From Octopus sinensis (taxonomy: Eukaryota), in contig NC_042999.1 of assembly GCF_006345805.1 (NCBI RefSeq), positions 98,022,001 to 98,086,000 of the forward strand: DNA of 64,000 nt. The letters run 5' to 3'. The translations under genes and the position numbers were made by a program. The notes beneath the pieces are model-generated. The model had not been told where the DNA came from. It ran no database searches and worked only from the letters and a program-made list of their open reading frames with translations. Below are positions 2,174 to 54,690 of this stretch, one piece after another. Each line of letters starts with the position of its first letter. The stretch's first letter is position 1.

Positions 2174-2230
<57 letters not shown>

Positions 2231-2279
2231 CTATAAGGTGAGCAAAAATGTACGTATGCTTCTATATGTATATATAAAT

Positions 2280-2775
2280 ATAAAAGATGGAACAAAAACG
2301 CAATAGAGGACAATAAAACATCCGGACAGATAGACGATACAAGGGCGGACAGGAAAAACAACAATTAGAGGGACATGAAAAAAAAAAGGACAAAGGCTTT
2401 TACTTTATACATGCCAGCTCAATCTGATTCGTCTTCAGTCGAAAGACACCTGTTGTTATATTCTTGTTGTTTGTACCTGTAATTGTGTACCATCTTCTCC
2501 GTTTTTTTTGTCTTTGTCGTACTCATTCGCTAGCTTCCTTACAAGAAATCTAATGCTTTTAGCTTTGACTTTTTTTGGAGGCAACCAGATCGAACAGCCT
2601 CAAGAGTAACTACCTGAAACTGTAAGGACATCTGGTAACTTGACTGATGAAAGAAGGCCACGAATGACCCGTCCTTTTTTCCCCTGTCCCTCTAATTGTT
2701 GTTTTTCCTGTCTGCCTTTGTATCATCTATCTAAATGTTTATTTGTCCTCTATTGCACTTTTGTTCCGTTTATAT
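2280..2775. mobile_element. Non-autonomous Penelope-like element with ~110-bp inverted ends between (TA)n tracts
   Basis: 2280-2391 is the reverse complement of ~2671-2775; contains an HHR-like motif at 2584-2655; TA microsatellites on both sides. Confidence 0.6.
2584..2655 (+). ncRNA. Non-circularly permuted hammerhead ribozyme-like motif (degenerate, U16.1>C)
   Basis: ACAG(C)C-UCAAG ... GAAA-CUGU ... CUUGA-CUGAUGA: stem III ACAG/CUGU, stem I UCAAG/CUUGA, extra helix ACCAGAU/AUCUGGU; stem II weak. Confidence 0.55.
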
Positions 2776-2778
2776 ATG

Positions 2779-2818
<40 letters not shown>

Positions 2819-4752: not shown

Positions 4753-7672
4753 AGATCCTAGAAGGACTTGTCCCAAACTTTGGTATCGAGAGTTACACAA
4801 ATGCCAGAACTGGGCGTCGCTGCGTGGTGCCAAGGACTCCAAATTTGCCCTCAAGGTGTAGGACAAGATACTCCCGAAGAACCTAAGAGACCGGCATGGG
4901 GAGGATGCAGATGTCTATAAAATGAAACTGGATCTCTTCTTGTCAGGTATCCCAGATGAACCAACTTCACGGCAGGAGGTGCAGATGAGGGCAGCTGCAT
5001 TGAACTCTCTCATGCACCAAATGGCAGTTGCTAAAAAGCATTCGTGAAGTAAAACCATGTTGCAACACCAAATGGCGGTGCCCCAGCATATATCCTTGGC
5101 ACTATGCAGTGGCGCTCAATAGCTTATATGCTTTCCCAATAGCTTATATGCTGCACAGAGGCTATCTTCTTCGAGTAGCTTCGTTGGATCGCCTCAAGTT
5201 CTGTGATTAACTTGACACTGGATGGTGACCATAGCTGAGAGCAACAGTCAAAGTGGCTTCGGACAAGTGTCCTCCAGAGGACCATCATGGTTCCCTGGTC
5301 TCTTGTTCTGAAGGTTCTAAGAATCCATCCGGTCAGCCGCCTACATTTCATTGCCAATTTAGCAACATGCACATGAAAGGTTGCATCATCACTCATGTAA
5401 ATACCCAGGTCTCGCACTGATTGTGCCTCTGGGATTGCAGTCCCTCCAGGTCCAGTGTATTTATTGGGTATTGCATTCAGTTTTGCGTGCTGATAGCATA
5501 GAGCTTGAAACTTTTCAGCATTGAACTGCATGCTATTCTTTTCAGCCCACTTGTATATTTTGTCCAGCTCACATTGCAGGTGCGTGGCTGAGAGCATGTC
5601 TGAGAGGGCCATTATGAACAGTAGTGGTCTCAAAACAGTGCCCTGTGGAACACCGCTCACTATTTGCGTGACTTCTATCCTTCAGAAAGTCATGAAGCCA
5701 CTCTCCCAATTTTCCAACTATGCCAAGATCACGCAGTTTGTGACATAGCATTCCATGATCGACTTTATCAAAGGCCTTTGCAAAGTCGAGATATATCACT
5801 TCCACATTTGAGTGGTTGAGCAGTCGTTTCAGCAGCCAGTCATAGTGTTGTAGGAGCTGAGTTAAGCAGCTTCTTCCTGGTCGGAAACCATGTTGAGTGT
5901 CAGGCAGCAAGTCATTTTCTTCAAGGAAGGTGATTAGTTTCCTTCTGACTATTCGTTCCATGATCTTGCTGATGCGTAAGGTCAGAGAGATAGGTCTGTA
6001 GTTCTTGGCCTCCGCTCTGCTACCTCCTTTATGAATAGGGCATATTTTACCTTCCTTCAAGTTTTCTTGGAAGTTTGCCAGTTGCAAGGAAGCTCTGAAA
6101 GAGGAACTGCAGTGGTCTTGCTAGGACTCTCTTACATACTTTTAGAAGGATTGCTGGGAATCCATCTGGGCCAGTAGCTGAGTTTGTTTTCATTTCATCA
6201 ATAGCCTTTATTACATCGTCTTCTTTTATATTGATGTAATCAATCATTGCTGCCTCCGATTTTATATCTGCAGTAGTAAAGAAGTCAGTTGGATTGCTGA
6301 CTTGAAAATGCCCTAGGGGTGGCGTGAAAATACTATTGAATTGCTCGTTTAGTATTTCACTTACCCTCATTAGATTTCCTGTGAGTGTGCCATCCTTTTC
6401 AAGGAGTGGCCCTATCCTACAGTGCACCGTAGCTGTTTCTTTGGCATACCTGTAGAAAGCTCTGGGGTTAGATGTTATGTTGTCTATAGCCCAGGCTTCT
6501 TTGTCTGCTCTTTCTTTTTCATGGGAGAGTTGCATACATTTTTCAATTTCCAACAGTTTTATTTTCAGGCGGGACTTTTCACTGCTTTCAATTTGTTTGT
6601 TTAGGCGATTTGAAACTTTTGTACGCCGTCTCATTAGAATTTTCCTCTCTCTGGGGATTTTGCTCTTGTGTACAGTGGCCTTTCTCTCTGGGACACATTC
6701 GTAGCATATGGCTTGCATTACAGACATGAATTGTTGAAGTTTCATGTCGATGTCTGGTGAGGATAGACATTCAGGCCAGTTTTGTTTGAGTATCTCTTTC
6801 TCAATTTGTTTCCAGTTTGCCTTATGGAAGTTCAAGCTGGAAAGATTCAGAGAGTTTCTTGTAGACTGCATGTCCATGCTTTCTTTTGGCCCGTACATGG
6901 TCAGCTCTACCATGTTGTGATCCGAGAGTAGTGTCGGTGTCACTTTCACATTATGGATGAGATCCATATTATTTGTGAAGCAGAGATCCAGTATGTTACC
7001 TGCCCTGGTTGGTTGGAGTATTACTTGCTCCATGTACAGAGTGTTGATGAGGTTCAGGAGGGACCTCGCCTTTCCTCGTTCACATCGTGTCATTCCTGGG
7101 AGAGAAAGGCTCTCGGGCCATCTGACATTGGGTAGATTGAAGTCCCCCATAAGAAGTACACTTATGTGTTGTTCTGATGTGACTAGAACTTCTATTTTTA
7201 TAAGGCAGTCTTCAAACTTGCCTACATGGCTTGGGGCATCTGGAGGGCGATATGTAGCACATATAACTACACCAAGTTGCCTTATATGTACAATTAGTGT
7301 GTCACACACCGAATTTGAGTATGACAAATGAACCTGGGGTGTGAGGTCCTCACGGATGTACATAGCAACTCCTCCATGACTCCTTTCTTTTCTGTCGGTC
7401 CGTAGTACAACATACTGTGGTATGTGTATCTCCGCATCTGCTATGTCCGGTTTCAGGTGTGTTTCCGTAAGTGCTATGCATAAGACTTGATTGCATGCAA
7501 CAAAGTCTCTCAAGAACGGGATTTTTGTCCTGTTACTGAGTGTTAGCAGTCCTCTGATGTTCAGTAGGAGCATCGAGGTGAGGTGTATGCTGTTGCTGGC
7601 GGTGTCCACCTTGGGTCTATTTGCTGTGGTGGTCTTGTGTATTGTGTCTGCGAGTTTGAGTTTGATGGAGCC
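4753..7672 (-). mobile_element. CR1/Jockey-group LINE, ORF2 (APE endonuclease + RT), frameshifted and internally deleted
   Basis: ORFs 6047-7774 (LLNIRGL, LTETHL, GGVAMY, YRPP, GDFN, LDL, SDH, GPDG), 5569-6087 (NYRPISL, QHGFRPGRSC, LDFAKAFDKVDH) and 5124-5660 (SGVPQGTVL, VRDLG); YADD segment absent. Confidence 0.92.
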
Positions 7673-8250
7673 AACAGTAAACAACATTAAATACCAAACA
7701 AATGAATTGAATACGCAAACAACGAGAGAAACAAATGGGAAACAGCACGAACAACACAAAGAGTGACTCTTCATCAGTTGTCTGCTGTCTATCTACTCAT
7801 TTCGAGCATTGAACGACAGAATGAGTCTTCGAAGACGGTTCCTCCCATAAGTACCAAAATAAAATTTTAGATTTATGGAGGGTGAAAGTTGGGAACAAAA
7901 ACAGGACAGTGGAGACATACAGGGAAACCAAACGAAAACAATCATAGAGAGCTGTTAGACCAGAACGAGGGTAAAATAGCGAACGTTGGAGAAATATTTT
8001 CTTTGGAAAGAGAAAAGATAGAAGAGAGAGATAGGATACGTCTAGTCCTTAGGACAGTCCTAAAGCAAAAGAAAGGTGATCTCGTGAGGAAAAGAAAGAT
8101 GGACGATGGTCACGTGTGAGCAATGAGAGAAAAAGAGAAAGAGGGGGAGAGAGACAAATAGAAAACGGTGAAGGGGAGACAAAAGGAATTAGAGAAAAGG
8201 ATGGGGGAGAAAGCAGTATAGAGTAGAGTCGCATTAAATGTAGGAATAAA
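7673..8250 (-). mobile_element. Non-autonomous HHR-bearing element, copy A (probable Penelope-like terminal repeat derivative)
   Basis: Clearly homologous along ~570 bp to 54116-54690; non-coding; carries permuted HHR at 7766-7839. Confidence 0.7.
7766..7839 (-). ncRNA. Non-circularly permuted hammerhead ribozyme-like motif, copy A
   Basis: Minus strand ACUCAU-U-CUGUCG..GCUC-GAAA-UGAGU..AGACAA-CUGAUGA-A-GAGU: stem III 6 bp, stem II GCUC/GAGU, stem I 4/6 paired. Confidence 0.6.
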
Positions 8251-12634: not shown

Positions 12635-15060
12635 TGTTGTGGGGATAATAGTAATAATGGTAACCCCCTCCTACGTGACGAGTGGTATGTATTAGCCGCT
12701 ATAAATAAAGGGACGTTGGTCAGTATAGAGAGTGTACGTAGTAGACGGTGAAAGTTTGTCGTGGTCTTATTTGTCTTACTAACTATATTGCTATACCAGA
12801 GTGGGCATTATAACAATCCAGCATTAAGGATTACAACAGTGACGACGAGGAATTAACAAACTCATGAGGAATTAACAAACCCACAAAAGTCTTTTTGTGC
12901 GAATTTTACGGAAAAAAAAAATTATGGAAAATTTGTTGACCGGTTTTCTCGAGTTGCAAAAGCAGCAACAACTGCAATTGAAAGAACAACAGCAACAGCT
13001 GCACCTGCAAGAACAACAACAGAAGCAACAACAGCAGCAGCAACAACAACAGTGACAGCTACAACTGCAAAACATCAGCGGAAGCAATTAAAACAATTAT
13101 TATCACAGCAACAAATGCTGCAACTAATGAAGAGTAAGTCGTCAGGAAATAATGACAAAATGTTCTCGCCAGATTATGCTGCGAACTTGATTACAAAGTT
13201 TAAATACAAACCAGACGAAGGGGTTATCTTTGAGGCTTACTATAGAAGATACGAACAAATCTTCAATAAAGAGTGCAAAGATTGGGACTGCGATATGAAA
13301 ATACGTTTAATCTTAAGAAAATTGGCAGTAGGAGAACATGAGCGACACAGCAATTACCTACTCCCGAAAATACCTTTTGACATAAACTTTAAAGATACAA
13401 TAGACATAGAGTAAAATTTTCAGCGAGAAAATCTCGTTATTCAATACACGTTGGAAATGTTTGAACCTAGAAAAGAACAACGAGGTGGACTACATCACAT
13501 ATGCTGGTAGAGTTAACAGGGAATGTGAAAAGTTCAAGCTGGACGAATTAACACCAGATATTTTCAAGTGCCTGATATTTACTCAGGGACTAACTGCAGA
13601 AAATGACGCAGAAGTAAGAACAAGAATTCTCGCTAAGCTGAAACAAGATCAAGCTGTAACTCTACAACAAGTATCAGAAGAGTGTGAAAGAATAATAAAT
13701 TTAAGACACGACACAGAGAAAATTGAACATAAAGATGGCTCCCAAGTGAAACAAGTGCAAAATAGGCAGAATAGAAATCGAGTGTGTACTAAAAAACAGT
13801 ACAAAGAGGACAAAAATCAGGATACAAACCACTGTTTTGCATGTGGAGGTCGACATCTGAGGAAAAATTCCATTTAAGAAAGCAGAATGCTTCCGTTGTA
13901 GAAAAATTGGACGCGTAAAAGCGCACTGTAAAACCAAGATCATAAAACGTTAGAACAAAAGAAAAAGAATAAACAAGATGTCGTCAAAAGAAAATGGTAA
14001 TATAACAGAGGAAATCTGTAAATGTGAAAATTAAAAATAGAAGAGTAAAAATGCAGTTAGACACTGGAAGGGATATTACCATTGTGAATGGTAAGCCGAA
14101 ACTAATTAAATCTACAAAAGTCACAGTAAAACAAACGATTGTACTTTGTCGGTGAATTTATGTGTAATGTAACATTTCGTGACCAAATGAAAGCGACAAA
14201 AATATATGTACTAAAAAATTCAGTTAATCTATTCGGCACAGAGTGGACGGAACTATTCAAATTATGGATTACGCCCATAATGTTTTGAGTGGGAATATAG
14301 TCGATTCAGTCGAACGTTCGAATGAGGTTGAGGGACTGAAACAAAAAATAAAACATTTATTTCCAGATGTTTTCTCAGAGGAACCGGGTTGCTGCACGAA
14401 AACAAAAGCAAAAATTGCTGTAAAATAAAGTGCAACACCTGTATTTAAGCTAAAACGGAATGTATCGTTTGCGGCAAAATTATCCACGGTAAAAAGTGAA
14501 CCTTGGTCAGAAGTAGATATTCTGTGGTCGAGACTACACATTGATTTCGCTGGTTCATACTACTTAATGGTAGTTGATAGGTTCTCTAAATGGCCAGAAA
14601 TCTGTAAGTGTTAAAAAACCAGCCTCCTCAACTGTGACAAATTTTTTACCGGAACTGTTTGCGAGATTTGGCATCCCAGACGTAATAATGTCTGACAATG
14701 GAACGCAATTTGTGTCTTTTGATTTTAAAACGTTCTGTAAAACGTTCGAAGTAGAACATGTACTCTGGAACCATATCATCCCAGATCTAACGGATAAGCA
14801 TAACGCTGTGTCGATACGTTCAAGAGAGCCCTAAGTTGAATAAGGAAGTCACGAATGAGGTAGTTCTACAACAATTCTAAAGAGTATACCGTGTGACACC
14901 AAATCTAAATATACCAGCGGAGCTGATCTTTGTGAGGAAAATAAAATCGGTCTTCGACAAATTATTACCTGGTAAGAAAAGAAAAACTGCAATGGAGAAT
15001 ACAGCAAGATTTTTCAAAATTGGTGAAAAGGTATTTGTGAGGGCATATAAAAACGGAAAA
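12635..15060 (+). mobile_element. Ty3/Gypsy LTR retrotransposon, internally deleted (5' LTR, gag, protease, integrase)
   Basis: LTR TGTTG...CAACA at 12635-12838 followed by PBS-like GTGACGACGAGG; gag with poly-Q and CCHC remnant; QLDTG protease; WSRLHIDFAG and SDNGTQF integrase; RT/RNase H absent. Confidence 0.88.
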
Positions 15061-24779: not shown

Positions 24780-25460
24780 GGTACTTAAGTTTAGGCAAAA
24801 TCGCAGAAAACCTTGGGTTCTCGCTTTGTAATAGGGTGATTGTGCAATTCACTAGAGAATGGAAGGAGTTCACATCACCTTTCCGAGGTCGATCAGGTCC
24901 TCTGACAGAACCCTTTGCTTCGTTAAGTGATGTGTGGAGGATAATCCTCATTGCAAGGCCTCTGACATAGCAAAAAAGTTGATGTCAATCCCTGAACAGC
25001 TGTGAGGTATCTCTACAAACTTGGTTACTATGACAGAGCAGCAAGAAGGAAGCCACTTCCCCAACCTGCCAATATCAAGTGGAGAAAAGGTTGGACCAGT
25101 GAGATGAACGACCAGTGGGTGGTCACTAGCATTTTGGCATTGTGGAACACTATCATATTCTCTGATGAGTCCAGATTTGTTGTATTTTCTGACAGTGGTC
25201 GAGTGTGGGTCTGGAGACTGATGAAGAATTTGACATGAAAAGATTGCTGCCAACAATGAAACAAGGCAGCTATTCTGTAATGGTTTGAGGAGTGTGATGG
25301 AAACATAAACTCAGATAAATATGTGTCCATATTGCAGAAAAGACTCCTTCCAATCTTCTCCAGTGGTGAAATAATTGAAGAAGATACTTTATTTATGGAA
25401 GATAGGGCCCATCGTCACGGGGCTAAAAAGACCCAAGACTGGTTAGAAAAGAATGGATAG
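24780..25460 (+). pseudogene. Tc1-family transposase remnant
   Basis: [35 protein letters not shown] motifs with frameshifts. Confidence 0.85.
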
Positions 25461-25462
25461 GT

Positions 25463-25800
25463 AAAATTTGTCTGCTTCATTGTTTCTAGGGTTGTACGTT
25501 GATACCAATGGTAGTGTTTTGAGATGTGGTGTAGTGTTACGTTTTGTTTCCCTTAGTATTTTAAGGCCTAATTTCTTGGCACGCTTAATTCCATCGTCTA
25601 TAAGTAAGGGTGGATATTGTCCCTCAGTTAGTGTTGTTCTGAAGTCTTGAAGACGGAGTTCTTGAGTATTTCCATCAGACACTATTGTGCAAATCCTTTC
25701 TATCATATTAAAAAGGATATCCCTTTTTGATGTGTTTCGGGTACCATGAGCTAAACAGAAGATATCGTTTCGAGTGCGTTGGCTTATGATAAATGACAGT
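25463..25800 (-). pseudogene. Penelope-like RT C-terminal fragment
   Basis: YHKPTHSKRYLLFSS, ERICTIVSD, QYPPLLID, LPLVSTYNP. Confidence 0.8.
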
Positions 25801-36000: not shown

Positions 36001-37649
36001 TGATTCCGTTTTTTTCCAATTTGTCCAACTCATCGTCCACTTGTTTTATTGCCGCAAAACGTACTTTCCTATTAGGCTTGAACATAGGTGTAACGTTATC
36101 ATCTAATTCAAAATACGCTTCAGTCTTTGTGCACAGACCTAGTTTGTCCGAGAATACTTGCGGAAACATTAAAAAAAATTTTCTCTTTAACTCTTCTGAC
36201 GAATTATTTTTAGAGGGACAACTATTTGTGTTTTTACAATATAAGTTTATGGGGAGGTCCTATAAATCGAATAATTCTAACCAATTGGTACCAAACTGAT
36301 CGGTTGCATTTTTAATGACGAAAACTTTCGCTTTGCATGTTTTCCTTCGAAATATGACGTTAGTCCACATTTCGCCTATGAAATGTAATTTGTCGCCCGT
36401 CACGCTACGAGCAGATTTCTCAACATAGGTTTCCCTATTTTCTTCCATGTGTCCATATTTATTATTGACATATCACTTCCTGTGTCCAATTGAAGATTAA
36501 TATGTATTCCATTTATTTTTACATGTACGAATTTTCTTATTTGGGAGTCCATTTTTGTTTTTGCTGAGCGTATTCTAGGATTTTTAACGTTTGACTTTCG
36601 CAATTTTGTTCTGCAGTGTGAACTCCTGTGACCAATTCTTTTGCAACTGTAACATTTTTGATCTTTATACGGGCAGCCTTTTCTCAAATGTCCCCCATCC
36701 ATAGCATGGATTAGGACGTGGCGCTCTTTTTTTGTTGTACATTTCTGGTCGGCATATCTATATTTTTGAGGAATCCTCTTCTTGAATTTTTCTACATCGT
36801 GTTTCAGGTTTAACATCCTTTGGCATTTTTCTGCCACGGACTTTAAGGTTAGAACTTGGTTCGCTTGTTCCAGTTTAGAAAGAATTTTTGCCGAATTTCT
36901 GTATCTTCGCTTGCTGTAAGGCCTTGTACGAAAATAAGACACTTGAACATCTCAGGTGTAAGTTCTTTAGTTTAAAACTCACATCCTGTTGACTATTCCT
37001 ACGTATGTGATAAAATCATCATCCATTTTCGTTATAGTCCAACATTCCATTCGAGTGTTAAATAGAGAAGTTTTATCACCGAATATGTTAGACAGTAATA
37101 TTATCATTTCTTTAAAACAAATTTGATTAGGTTTTTTGGGGGATACTATGAAATTAAAGTAAAGTTCATGCTCTAACGGAGCTAATTTTCGCAATAACAA
37201 TCTCACTTTTTGTTCTTTCGACCATGATTTGCAGGCGTGCTTAAAAATCTCCTCGTACCTTCTGTAGTACGCTGCAAAAGTTATACCCTCCTCTGGGTTA
37301 TAACTGAATTCATTAATCGAGTTCGAAACATCGTCTGGCGAAATCGAGCTTACCTCATTTTTGGACTACTTTGAATATAGTTCGAATAATTGTTGTTGTA
37401 GGTGTTGCTGTAATAGTTGCTTCTGCAACTCCTGTTGCTGCTCTTGTTGTTACTTTTGTAACTGTACTATGGAAGCTAATAGGTCTTCCATTATTTAACA
37501 AGTTGTATCCCGAACAAAATGTTAAATAACCTACGTGAGCTTCGAAACCCTCGTCGCCAAATGTTGTAACGTAATTTGTTACGTACAATAAATAAGATAA
37601 CCAGACAACAGTTAAAAGAATGCAACATACTGACACATCTCTTTACGAA
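33089..37649 (-). mobile_element. Ty3/Gypsy LTR retrotransposon, near full length, decayed
   Basis: 3' LTR 33089-33348 (TG..CA); partial 5' LTR 37562-37649; PBS TGGCGACGAG at 37550-37559; gag CCHC (CYSCKRIGHRSSHC), LQLDTGS, WAAP, YFDD, RNase H DAS, integrase SDNG. Confidence 0.92.
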
Positions 37650-50260: not shown

Positions 50261-50460
50261 ATCCAAACAAGAAAGCACAAAAAAACACAACAACGCGAGA
50301 ACGTGGAACATATATAGTATTATTGGACGCTCAGGAAAGAAGGAAAGAAGAAGGGTTTAACGTTTCGAGCGGAGCTCTTCGTCGGAAACATAGGGGAAGA
50401 AAAGATCCAGAGAAAGGAAGACAGAGGAAAAAAAAATCGCCAACGGTACACACGAGGTCG
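50261..50460 (-). mobile_element. Penelope-like terminal repeat fragment with minimal HHR
   Basis: HHR at 50355-50389 followed on the minus strand by a pyrimidine-rich tail ending in (TA)n. Confidence 0.6.
50355..50389 (-). ncRNA. Minimal type I hammerhead ribozyme variant (core CCGACGA)
   Basis: GUUU-CCGACGA-A-GAGC-UCC-GCUC-GAAA-CG-UU-AAAC: stem I GUUU/AAAC, stem II GAGC/GCUC, palindromic AACGUU in place of stem III. Confidence 0.7.
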
Positions 50461-51960
50461 TCGGCTCCAGCTCGTATCCGAGCAGTGGGTTTTAATCCAA
50501 TCTCCTCGGCTGATGTTTGTGCCGAAAGTGACTTTGGAGTCCAAGTCGATGGTGAAAGAGTCGTGGGAAGAAATCGCACGGGATGGTCTGTGCAGGGCGA
50601 GGATGTTGAAGACGCTCCTTTCTTCTGCATTTTGCTTCCTAATTCTGTTGCAGATAGCAGTCCTCCAGGCTGTCCCAGCCGTGGCAATCTGTTCCCATGA
50701 GGATAACTCGATTTTAGCTTGAACCAAAGTTCGTCTGAGCTGGTCTTTAAAACGAAATTTCGGACATCCTCTGAGTCTTGTTTCAATTGCAAGTTCTCCG
50801 TAGAGAATGATCCTTGGGAGACGAGAGGGCTCCATATGCTGGATGTAACCTACTAGCGGAGACGATGGCTTCGACACTTGGAAGTAAGGCGCAGCGAAGA
50901 ACCTCGTTGTTGGTAAAGTGATCTTTCCTTTGTGTGTTGAGGATCTGTCGTAGCTTCGATTGCTGGAAAAATTCAAGGCGCTTGAAGTCACGGCTGTACA
51001 ACGTCCAAGTCTCACAAGCGTAGAGATGGTAGGACAATGGCACAGAAGACCATGATCTTTGTCCGGATGGTCAGCGCGTGATTGAAGAATACACATCGGC
51101 TGAGTCTGCCGAAGGCGGAGTGGGCCGCCCCAATCCGGTTCTCCACGTCCTTTTCACACGTGGAGGTCTTCGAAAGGATACTTCCAAGGTACGTGAAGTG
51201 TTCAACTTCTTCTAGAGGTTGGCCGTTGATGCTAATGTTTGTGGGGGGACTGTTCTGGCCTGGTACAGGTTGGGTCAGTGTCTTGATCTTCAATATGTTT
51301 ACCGGCATCCCGAAGCGTTCGTAAACCGCATTGTAAAGATCGGCCGTCCTTTGTAGGCCATCTGCGGTCCGGCTCGGTGTGGTATTGACGTCGGCATACT
51401 GCATATCACAGACTGAAATGGCGGAGGTCCTCGTCTTTGCACGGAGATGTGCGAGATTGAAGAGTCCGCCATCCAAGCGATAGTGCATGTTGATGGAAGA
51501 TGAGTTTAGTGGGATTTCGTTGAACATGGTGGTCATGTACAAAGAGAAACAGTTTGGTGACAGGACGCATCCTTGCTTAAGATCCCAGTGATGGGACGTG
51601 TCTTTGTTGGTCCACGAGTTGCGTTTTGATGGCAAGGCTAAGTCAATGGATGCGTGGTTCAATAGGATTCTTCTCCTTCCAAAACATGGGGTATTTGGAA
51701 CCAGCTTCTCTGATGCTGCCTACTCCGGGAAGCCTAGCCTCGCTCAAGGGTGCCACGTCGATGTTGAAGCAGGCAAGTTCCTTCCAGACGAGGGCTGTAC
51801 GTCGCTCTGGTCGATTTATGTCTTTCTTGTCCTGGAGAGTGCGAATGTTCCAAGTCCCGAATGTGAGAGGTTGTGGAACAGAATCATTGGAACACACAGG
51901 TTCTTCCACCACGAGAAGGGACAATCAGATAAAGTAGATATGTTTCGACCAGTGATTGGT
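50461..51960 (-). mobile_element. RTE/BovB-like LINE with large internal deletion
   Basis: EN start GTWNIRTL..RPERRTAL..LSEARL joined directly to RT end KQGCVLSP, QYADV, FTYLGS, YACETW, RLPRIILYGEL. Confidence 0.9.
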
Positions 51961-53527: not shown

Positions 53528-53585
53528 AGTTCTGTATCACCGTGATTTCACATTCAACTTACGTCTAATGATCATCAGCAGAACT
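53528..53585 (-). ncRNA. Type I hammerhead ribozyme (left arm)
   Basis: Exact reverse complement of 53748-53805. Confidence 0.8.
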
Positions 53586-54115: not shown

Positions 54116-54690
54116 CAACAGTAAACAACATGAAATACGGAAACAAATGAGTTCAATATGCAGACAACGAGAGAAACAAAGTAGTATAAAGAAGGACCCT
54201 TCATCAGTTGTCGACCGTCTATCTACTCATTTCGAACACTGAACGACAATATGAGTCCTCGAAAACAGTTACTCCCATAAGTACCAAATTAAAATTTGGG
54301 ATTTATAGAGGGTCAAAGTTGGGAACGAAAACAGGACAGTGGAGACATACAAGGAAACCGAACGAAAACAAACATGGAGGGTCGTTAGATCAGAACGAGG
54401 GTAAGATAGCGAACGCTGGAGAAATATTTTCTTTGACAAGAGAAAAGATAGAAGAGAGAGATAGGATACGTCCAGACCTTAGCACATTCTTGAAAGAAAA
54501 GCAAGATAATCACTTGTGGAAAAGAAAGATGGACGATGGTCACGTTTGAGCAACGAGAGAGAGAAAATGAGAAAGAGGGGGAGAGGGAGACTGATAGAAA
54601 ACGTTGAAGGGGAGAAAAAAGGGAATTAGAGAAAGGATGAGAAAGAAAACGATGGGGAGAAACAGTATAAAGTCGCATCAAAAAGATTAA
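54116..54690 (-). mobile_element. Non-autonomous HHR-bearing element, copy B
   Basis: Homologous to 7673-8250; abuts (TA)n at 54066-54114. Confidence 0.75.
54196..54269 (-). ncRNA. Non-circularly permuted hammerhead ribozyme-like motif, copy B (best preserved)
   Basis: ACUGUUU..ACUCAU-A-UUGUCG-uucagu-GUUC-GAAA-UGAGU-agau-AGACGGU-CGACAA-CUGAUGA-A-GGGU: complete core, perfect 6-bp stems I and III, 4-bp wobble-rich stem II, 7-bp extra helix. Confidence 0.7.

Follow-up and report, generated by a model that had tools for sequence, protein, structure and literature searches.

The window analyzed here is a 64,000-nucleotide stretch of contig NC_042999.1 of Octopus sinensis. Near its left end, a repeat insertion was found between two (TA)n tracts, composed of an inverted piece of the 3' end of the repeat unit, with its tail, and a 5'-truncated copy in the sense orientation (Table 1). 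The unit measures approximately 760 to 860 bases (approximately 760 in family A, the family of the window motif), and no protein-coding frame was recognized in it. Units were also found in head-to-tail tandems with periods of 760 to 861 bases and at most 10 bases of TA inside, including one triple. Partial tandems, an inverted 5' copy, a one-sided tail, a microsatellite target and the lack of a coding frame, the characteristics of a non-autonomous Penelope-like element, were all observed, and a Penelope-like layout matching this insertion is described in the accessible text of Craig et al. 2021 (PMC8557442). A type I hammerhead in each unit, as in retrozymes, was not found. Just 3' of the tail lies a splice-donor-like TAAGT followed by approximately 450 pyrimidine-rich bases (approximately 1035-1045 of locus L008 in element orientation, and also in units of families B, C and D); together these could be a candidate retained Penelope-type intron.

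Elsewhere in the window, an inverted pair of canonical type I hammerhead cores at 53578 (minus strand) and 53755 (plus strand) belongs to a different repeat. Open frames of other retroelements lie at 5127-7792, 25446-25799, 36403-37365 and 50323-51719 on the minus strand and at 12857-13874 on the plus strand; their motifs suggest LINE-like, Penelope-like and LTR-like remnants.

Table 1. Parts of the window copy, its surroundings and related units in the window
Feature	Positions	Strand	Remarks
(TA)n tract, left flank of the insertion	2197..2226	none
Inverted copy of the unit 3' end, Penelope-like inverted arrangement	2228..2385	-	match to the unit in locus L008
Tail of approximately 38 bases on the inverted copy	2228..2266		absent from the sense copy; extent judged by eye
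Family A unit, 5'-truncated sense copy	2394..2775	+
Core-complementary stretch overlapping a GAAA-tetraloop hairpin (2438-2447)	2432..2447	+
Extra strand X1	2524..2540	+	partner 2651-2666
Hairpin H, between X1 and X2	2542..2577	+	11/12 pairs in the window copy
Extra strand X2	2579..2583	+	partner 2611-2615
Stem III extension, 5' strand (extra helix of the earlier note), and side of the kink-turn-like loop	2584..2593	+
Block S: stem III strand, 16.1 (2598), 17 (2599), stem I strand	2594..2604	+	16.1 is C here
Predicted cut	between 2599 and 2600	+
Block G: stem II strand, GAAA, stem III strand	2611..2623	+
3-base bulge and GA of the kink-turn-like loop, then stem III extension, 3' strand	2624..2636	+
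Block C: stem I strand, CUGAUGA (2644-2650), X1-pairing strand	2639..2666	+
(TA)n tract, right flank	2779..2816	none
Family B copy, same four-strand fold, unrelated stems	54190..54330	-
Second family B unit	7672..8212	-	83% identical to the 54-kb unit; core at 7777

A permuted hammerhead core

An earlier note on this DNA had placed five strands of a permuted hammerhead at 2584 to 2655. All five were present at their positions, and their pairing was checked pair by pair: strands 2584-2590 and 2630-2636 formed 7 of 7 pairs, stem III (2594-2597 with 2620-2623) formed 4 of 4, followed by a C2598.A2619 mismatch, and stem I (2600-2604 with 2639-2643) formed 5 of 5. The range given was incomplete, as the motif begins near 2524 and an upstream strand, X, lies outside it. 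The conserved blocks follow the order S (the cut site), G (GAAA) and C (CUGANGA), so that the strands run X, S, G, C. This is the order of type-SGC hammerheads and not that of types I, II or III, which confirms the permuted order as a non-circular one.

The fold was found in three clades, A/D, B/C/E and F, with no BLAST similarity between clades beyond short words. Family A has 123 exact matches to an 18-base 3' pattern, and its top copies are 85 to 89% identical to the window copy; family D, a younger relative approximately 71% identical to A, includes identical copies. The motif at 54.2 kb belongs to family B. As had been claimed, its stems differ from those at the present site yet pair, the two families being without detectable similarity beyond 10-base words, and stems I and III are kept in more than one family with different letters. 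The description of the two motifs as independent instances held for their sequences, which are unrelated, but the shared strand order and unit layout point to common descent of the clades.

The catalytic core was compared across 29 family A rows picked by similarity. C3 to A6, A9, A14 and A15.1 were present in 29 of 29 rows, G12 in 28, U16.1 in 25 and G8 in 24, and N7 took all four bases; family A therefore carries CUGANGA, GAAA and UH with a free N7. The rows of family D and of families B, C and E were picked by patterns that fix several core letters, so their core conservation results partly from selection. Over families A and D, stems I and III were paired around the cut site in 95.9% and 90.4% of cells, respectively. 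Four of the five stem III pairs were double-changed, with covariation within family A as well, and stem I was invariant (0 of 5 pairs double-changed).

The window copy departs from its family at five points: C at 16.1, an A-U rather than a G-C pair at 10.1-11.1, and mismatches in X1, H and X2. The expectation that a consensus would restore GUC at the cut site was borne out, U16.1 being the majority letter both in family A and in sequencing run X15, which carries the family letters at 2534, 2579, 2598, 2612 and 2615, where the window copy deviates. On account of its five departures, the window copy is probably inactive, as previously judged. Its folding energy was no better than that of shuffled sequence (z, -0.68), compared with a z of -2.99 for a young family D copy.

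Probable completion of stem II by an upstream strand

The earlier note had regarded stem II as weak and looked to the consensus for a paired form. Direct pairing of the two stem II strands was not restored: over families A and D, 31.6% and 42.2% of cells were paired with 0 and 1 inserted base, respectively, and the best register, with a 5-base insertion, reached 73.8% with the middle pair mismatched in 32 of 48 rows. A direct stem II in these families was rejected in all three registers. Within the family, however, stem II is not weak, as both of its strands pair with the upstream strand (2524-2583). The partner of X1 is the strand that follows CUGANGA, that of X2 is the strand that precedes GAAA, and hairpin H separates X1 from X2. 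In the window copy, X1 forms 6 of 6 distal and 7 of 8 proximal pairs with its partner, and the first base of X2, the predicted G10.1, is A, compared with G in 25 of the 29 family A rows.

Across 49 distinct rows of families A and D, the five helices were paired in 88.2% of cells, compared with 32 to 50% in slid controls, and 19 of 43 pairs were double-changed, a count that, like all covariation counts here, reflects few between-subfamily events, the copies within a family being related rather than independent samples. The helix formed by X2 and its partner strand (X2/IIb) was paired in 92.5% of cells, with 4 of 5 pairs double-changed, and was the sole helix recovered by RNAalifold unprompted, as is expected for a pseudoknot in a gapped alignment. 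In 26 rows of families B, C and E, where X1, H and X2 are consecutive and gapless, these three helices were paired in 89.7% of cells, with 10 of 18 pairs double-changed. In the MAFFT alignments, the register was wrong for block S (B versus C/E) and for the stem III extension (A versus D), and the affected helices were therefore omitted from the pairing counts.

X2 pairing of at least 5 pairs was found in 10 of 16 copies of family A, 13 of 17 of B, 14 of 18 of D, 28 of 32 of C/E and 13 of 15 of F, compared with 2 to 22% for shuffled upstream sequence. A free search for X1 gave no clear excess over shuffled upstream DNA, since U-rich DNA pairs readily; X1 rests on pairs at fixed positions. Two pairs adjoining A9 are open in family D. 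At loci L401 and L171 (second copy), short deletions remove the cut site or the X2 strand. The border between H and X2 was considered as a splice acceptor in families C and E and rejected, as one subfamily without AG still keeps the pair.

These observations bear on a plain type-SGC ribozyme with a direct stem II, in which X would act as an off-switch that separates the stem II strands until refolding. Such an arrangement has precedent in the published SGC constructs, in which the stem II strands pair directly, with a single inserted base, and no upstream strand is required (accessible text of PMC10085705). A G.U-rich stem II of this kind is likewise available to families B, C and E (80% paired; 13 of 17 and 31 of 32 copies), and the 73.8% reached by A and D with five inserted bases can be counted in its favor. 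However, the mismatched middle pair of that register speaks against it, as does the finding of a direct stem II of at least 4 pairs in only 0 of 16 copies of A, 0 of 18 of D and 2 of 15 of F. Further, X2 pairs right up to GAAA, and the pair at the 10.1-11.1 position is a conserved G-C. We therefore consider the off-switch decidedly unlikely. Block C, which in type-SGC hammerheads is uninterrupted (at most 1-2 bases), is interrupted in A, D and F, the alternative being feasible in B, C and E. By eye, the strands that would form the type-SGC helix joining distal stems I and II are paired elsewhere, in the stem III extension and X1, and have no evident partner for it. No hammerhead in which helices separate A9 from G10.1 was found in the literature searched; known hammerhead alignments have at most 1-2 bases at this point (accessible text of PMC10085705).

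Another stretch upstream of the motif is complementary to the core in family A, with 10 of 11 pairs by eye between 2432-2442 and 2640-2650. The small GAAA-tetraloop hairpin that it overlaps is kept in families A and D approximately 150 bases 5' of the cut, and the stretch as a whole may serve as an off-switch or as a docking loop. A minus-strand CUGAAGA at 2438 was considered as a second ribozyme and rejected, as it did not fit the descriptor and is absent from family D.

The stem III extension and its kink-turn-like loop

The helix that had been described as an extra one is real, but it is not separate: it continues stem III. In a kink-turn, two helices are separated by a 3-base bulge and the tandem G.A and A.G pairs that follow it. 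At the corresponding positions of family A, the G was present in 28 of 29 rows, the A in 27, the opposite A in 29 and the G in 24; in family D, GA was present in 21 of 21 rows, with two variable bulge positions. The loop thus fits the kink-turn consensus, from which a bent geometry is predicted. Only two bases join the end of the stem III extension to stem I, a link made feasible if a sharp bend of the extension brings the ends near. Families B and C have an AGUA/GAA loop at the same position, which we take to resemble a loop E motif.

Detection and genome-wide occurrence

A descriptor with the SGC strand order, at least 5 pairs in stem I, at least 4 in stem III and C permitted at 16.1, with thresholds chosen in knowledge of the site, identified two sites in the window (this one and one at 54207), compared with a total of 1 match in 100 block-wise dinucleotide shuffles. 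When a looser descriptor was applied to an unbiased 600-kb sample, drawn at even spacing from the genome, it gave 4 SGC matches, only one of them convincing, versus 0 to 1 per shuffle in 10 shuffles, and canonical type I hammerheads gave 7 matches versus 0 to 1 in shuffles. Taken alone, the enrichment of the loose descriptor is modest; the strong enrichment comes from whole-genome patterns. In the 2.72-Gb genome, the pattern for the A/D clade had 5,059 matches, compared with 0 for the reversed pattern, that for B/C/E, the clade of the 54.2-kb motif, had 7,852 compared with 7 for its control, and that derived from published octopus Naiad tails (family F) was found at 228 places compared with 0.

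Among 150 of 153 Rfam matches listed at an E value of at most 5, no hammerhead appeared, and the top matches were microsatellite-driven miRNA models. A metagenome scan gave 25 matches, including three weak, identical fits and none that was convincing, and viral contigs gave 0 matches. Contigs of runs guessed to be RNA contained units but provided no ends, strands or joints for family D.

The unremarkable folding energy of the window copy and the modest enrichment of the loose descriptor on unbiased DNA would be expected if the pairings had arisen by chance in an AT-rich repeat and had been amplified by transposition, with no selection on structure. By contrast, the helices and their order are common to three dissimilar clades, double changes occur in stems II, III and H, and the genome-wide counts far exceed their controls. 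Chance pairing is therefore largely refuted, and we regard it as exceedingly improbable.

5' ends of truncated copies

Copies were chosen by patterns 3' of the core, and the start of each copy was mapped. In the A/D sample, 99 copies among the matches listed on one contig, a few of them segmental duplicates (none seen among the post-cut ends), 19 copies start within the 14 bases after the predicted cut, compared with 2 in the 14 bases before it (p = 2e-4) and 4 in the next 14 (p = 3e-3). Nearly all of these post-cut ends belong to family D. Similar counts were obtained for 73 C/E copies among the matches listed (of 4,232), with 14 ends after the cut, 1 before and 6 in the next interval, and for family A at 50 of its 123 places, with 7, 1 and 1, respectively. 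For family F, the pattern leaves 8 post-cut bases visible, and no start was found there in 30 copies. The peak of the ends is at +5 to +7 rather than at 0, and many ends coincide with TA microhomology, which makes a promoter or a joining bias possible. From the position of this pile-up, it is likely that the family self-cleaves.

The same ends were weighed under a real but non-catalytic fold, serving as a handle for reverse transcriptase or a host protein, in which the 5' ends would arise from transcription start, stalling or TA microhomology. The offset of 5 to 7 bases from the predicted cut, the AT-rich linker found there in family D and the lack of a pile-up in family F agree with such a fold, and the hammerhead of Anolis Poseidon is reported to be unneeded for insertion in vitro and to cut only with protein present (accessible text of PMC11167929). 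However, all catalytic letters are kept while N7 varies, and clades whose linkers are unrelated have the step at one and the same structural position, also among ends that lack a TA junction. In addition, the strand order implies that a transcriptase at that point would already have passed the 3' strands of all helices but H. We therefore judge the non-catalytic fold unlikely and prefer cleavage as the source of the ends.

Relation to Naiads and a candidate mobilizing enzyme

In the accessible text of Craig et al. 2021 (PMC8557442), no canonical hammerhead is reported for the Naiad clade, and eight members are flagged with a half core. By eye, the 3' ends of the Naiad_Obim and Naiad_Ovul consensuses available from that work contain stems I and III, X2, H, a weaker X1 and the kink-turn; one of these two octopus consensuses is flagged "HHR_half_core" there. 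Naiad_Esco has stems I and III in SGC order by eye with no clear X2, and no such motif was seen in the available consensuses of Naiad_Omin, Naiad_Adux, Naiad_Mmer and Naiad-1_Skow. In the octopus genome, 17 of 30 Naiad reverse transcriptase (RT) remnants are followed downstream by the family F fold on the same strand, and a more distant remnant at locus L552 is also followed by family F. All 128 Naiad RT matches in the genome are broken, with a longest open frame of 320 residues. A frame with an N-terminal GIY-YIG domain and RT was not found upstream of family A, and family F alone has RT remnants upstream.

Several RT plus GIY-YIG elements in the genome have intact frames of 760 to 880 residues. 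At L095:1474-5174, L098, L096 and L097, an intact two-frame Penelope-like element has overlapping frames of 479 and 781 residues. No CUGANGA was found within 1.5 kb after the 781-residue RT plus GIY-YIG frame in any of 7 elements examined, and this element seems to be a candidate mobilizer that itself apparently lacks a hammerhead. Units lie 0.6 to 2.4 kb past the kind of 3' end that this element has, on the same strand at L099, L100, L110, L146 and L220 and on the opposite strand at L078, L106 and L199. A linkage of units to the element was rejected, since few motif-selected loci have such protein matches, at about the level of random DNA in a rough comparison; shared (TA)n targeting may explain the proximity.

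Comparison with known systems

Type-SGC hammerheads (HRIMA-1 and variants; Eckert et al. 2023, PMC10085705) are described, in the accessible text, only from metatranscriptomes and from the genome of no known organism, and plain type-SGC ribozymes cleave in vitro. The octopus motifs share with them the S, G, C order, stems I and III, all core letters and a short link from stem I to the stem II strand, and the cut site was predicted by analogy. In the published forms, stem II is direct, a helix bridges the ends of stem I and stem II, and the motif starts a few bases before the cut. Here, an upstream strand containing a hairpin appears to divide stem II between two helices, stem III continues beyond a kink-turn-like or AGUA/GAA loop, and the copies are chromosomal and numerous in an animal. 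The motif is thus hammerhead-like and SGC in order but lacks the direct stem II of both. Stem III of family D (at L110) and the stem II strands of family F have the same letters as SGC-3 in the available text of PMC10085705, probably a coincidence of short stems.

Animal non-LTR retrozymes also consist of non-coding tandem units with one hammerhead each and are linked to Penelope elements, but in the accessible texts they are defined and searched by type I hammerheads only (Li et al. 2026, bioRxiv 10.64898/2026.07.22.740005; Cervera and de la Pena 2020, PMC7229834); the units of 760 to 861 bases described here carry a four-strand fold that type I descriptors miss. Circular RNA is reported for retrozymes. 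Naiads have the same (TA)n targets, partial tandems, inverted 5' copy and tail at one end (PMC8557442, accessible text). Unlike them, family A is non-coding; its sequence is not similar to that of family F, the Naiad tail family, and family D has identical copies although the Naiad RTs of the genome are all fragments. In the text available for Anolis Poseidon (Frangieh et al. 2024, PMC11167929), a model exists for internal priming on element RNA and nicking of AT-rich DNA; its hammerhead, located in the pseudo-LTR, is canonical, and the element is autonomous. The accessible literature that was searched contained no account of this wiring or of animal SGC forms.

Discussion

We consider it probable that the window contains a decayed copy of a scrambled hammerhead core within a non-coding Penelope-like unit, that intact copies self-cleave and that their stem II is completed by the upstream strand. 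In the proposed structure, X2 would supply G10.1, and the backbone between A9 and G10.1 would be interrupted by two extra helices (X1/IIa and H), which may stack as a four-way junction. By folding the stem III extension back, the predicted kink-turn would allow the 2-base link to reach stem I.

In the proposed cycle, tandem units would be transcribed and cut once per unit after H17, yielding unit-length RNA. A Penelope-type reverse transcriptase with a GIY-YIG endonuclease, supplied in trans, would nick (TA)n DNA, and the RNA would be copied from an internal TA-rich site approximately 170 bases past the cut; internal priming with insertion into AT-rich DNA has been demonstrated in vitro for the Anolis element (accessible text of PMC11167929). 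On cut RNA, copying would stop near the cut; full units and tandems would come from RNA that is uncut or has been re-ligated. A monomer running from cut to cut would hold all four strands and could re-ligate into a circle. The seamless tandems are compatible with circles and equally with read-through transcripts.

A further proposal is more tentative, and we hold it to be somewhat less probable than its opposite: the four-strand core, with a four-way junction at A9/G10.1 and a pseudoknot closed by the kink-turn, may be the missing ribozyme of Naiads, whose coding-free circles of approximately 0.8 kb may have outlived them and still be copied into the octopus genome by a different Penelope-type enzyme, with in vivo cleavage recorded there as a footprint.

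Of the small ribozymes, the hammerhead has been studied most thoroughly, and three unbroken blocks have been assumed necessary for its core. If the proposed reading is true, this requirement would be relaxed by a natural form with a fourth strand and with helices within the core, which would also explain why standard searches miss these motifs. Non-circular permutations would move from environmental RNA to more than 10,000 places in an animal genome, and the apparent absence of hammerheads from Naiads would have a possible answer. The genome would then also provide direct evidence as to whether Penelope-type ribozymes cut their RNA in transposition.
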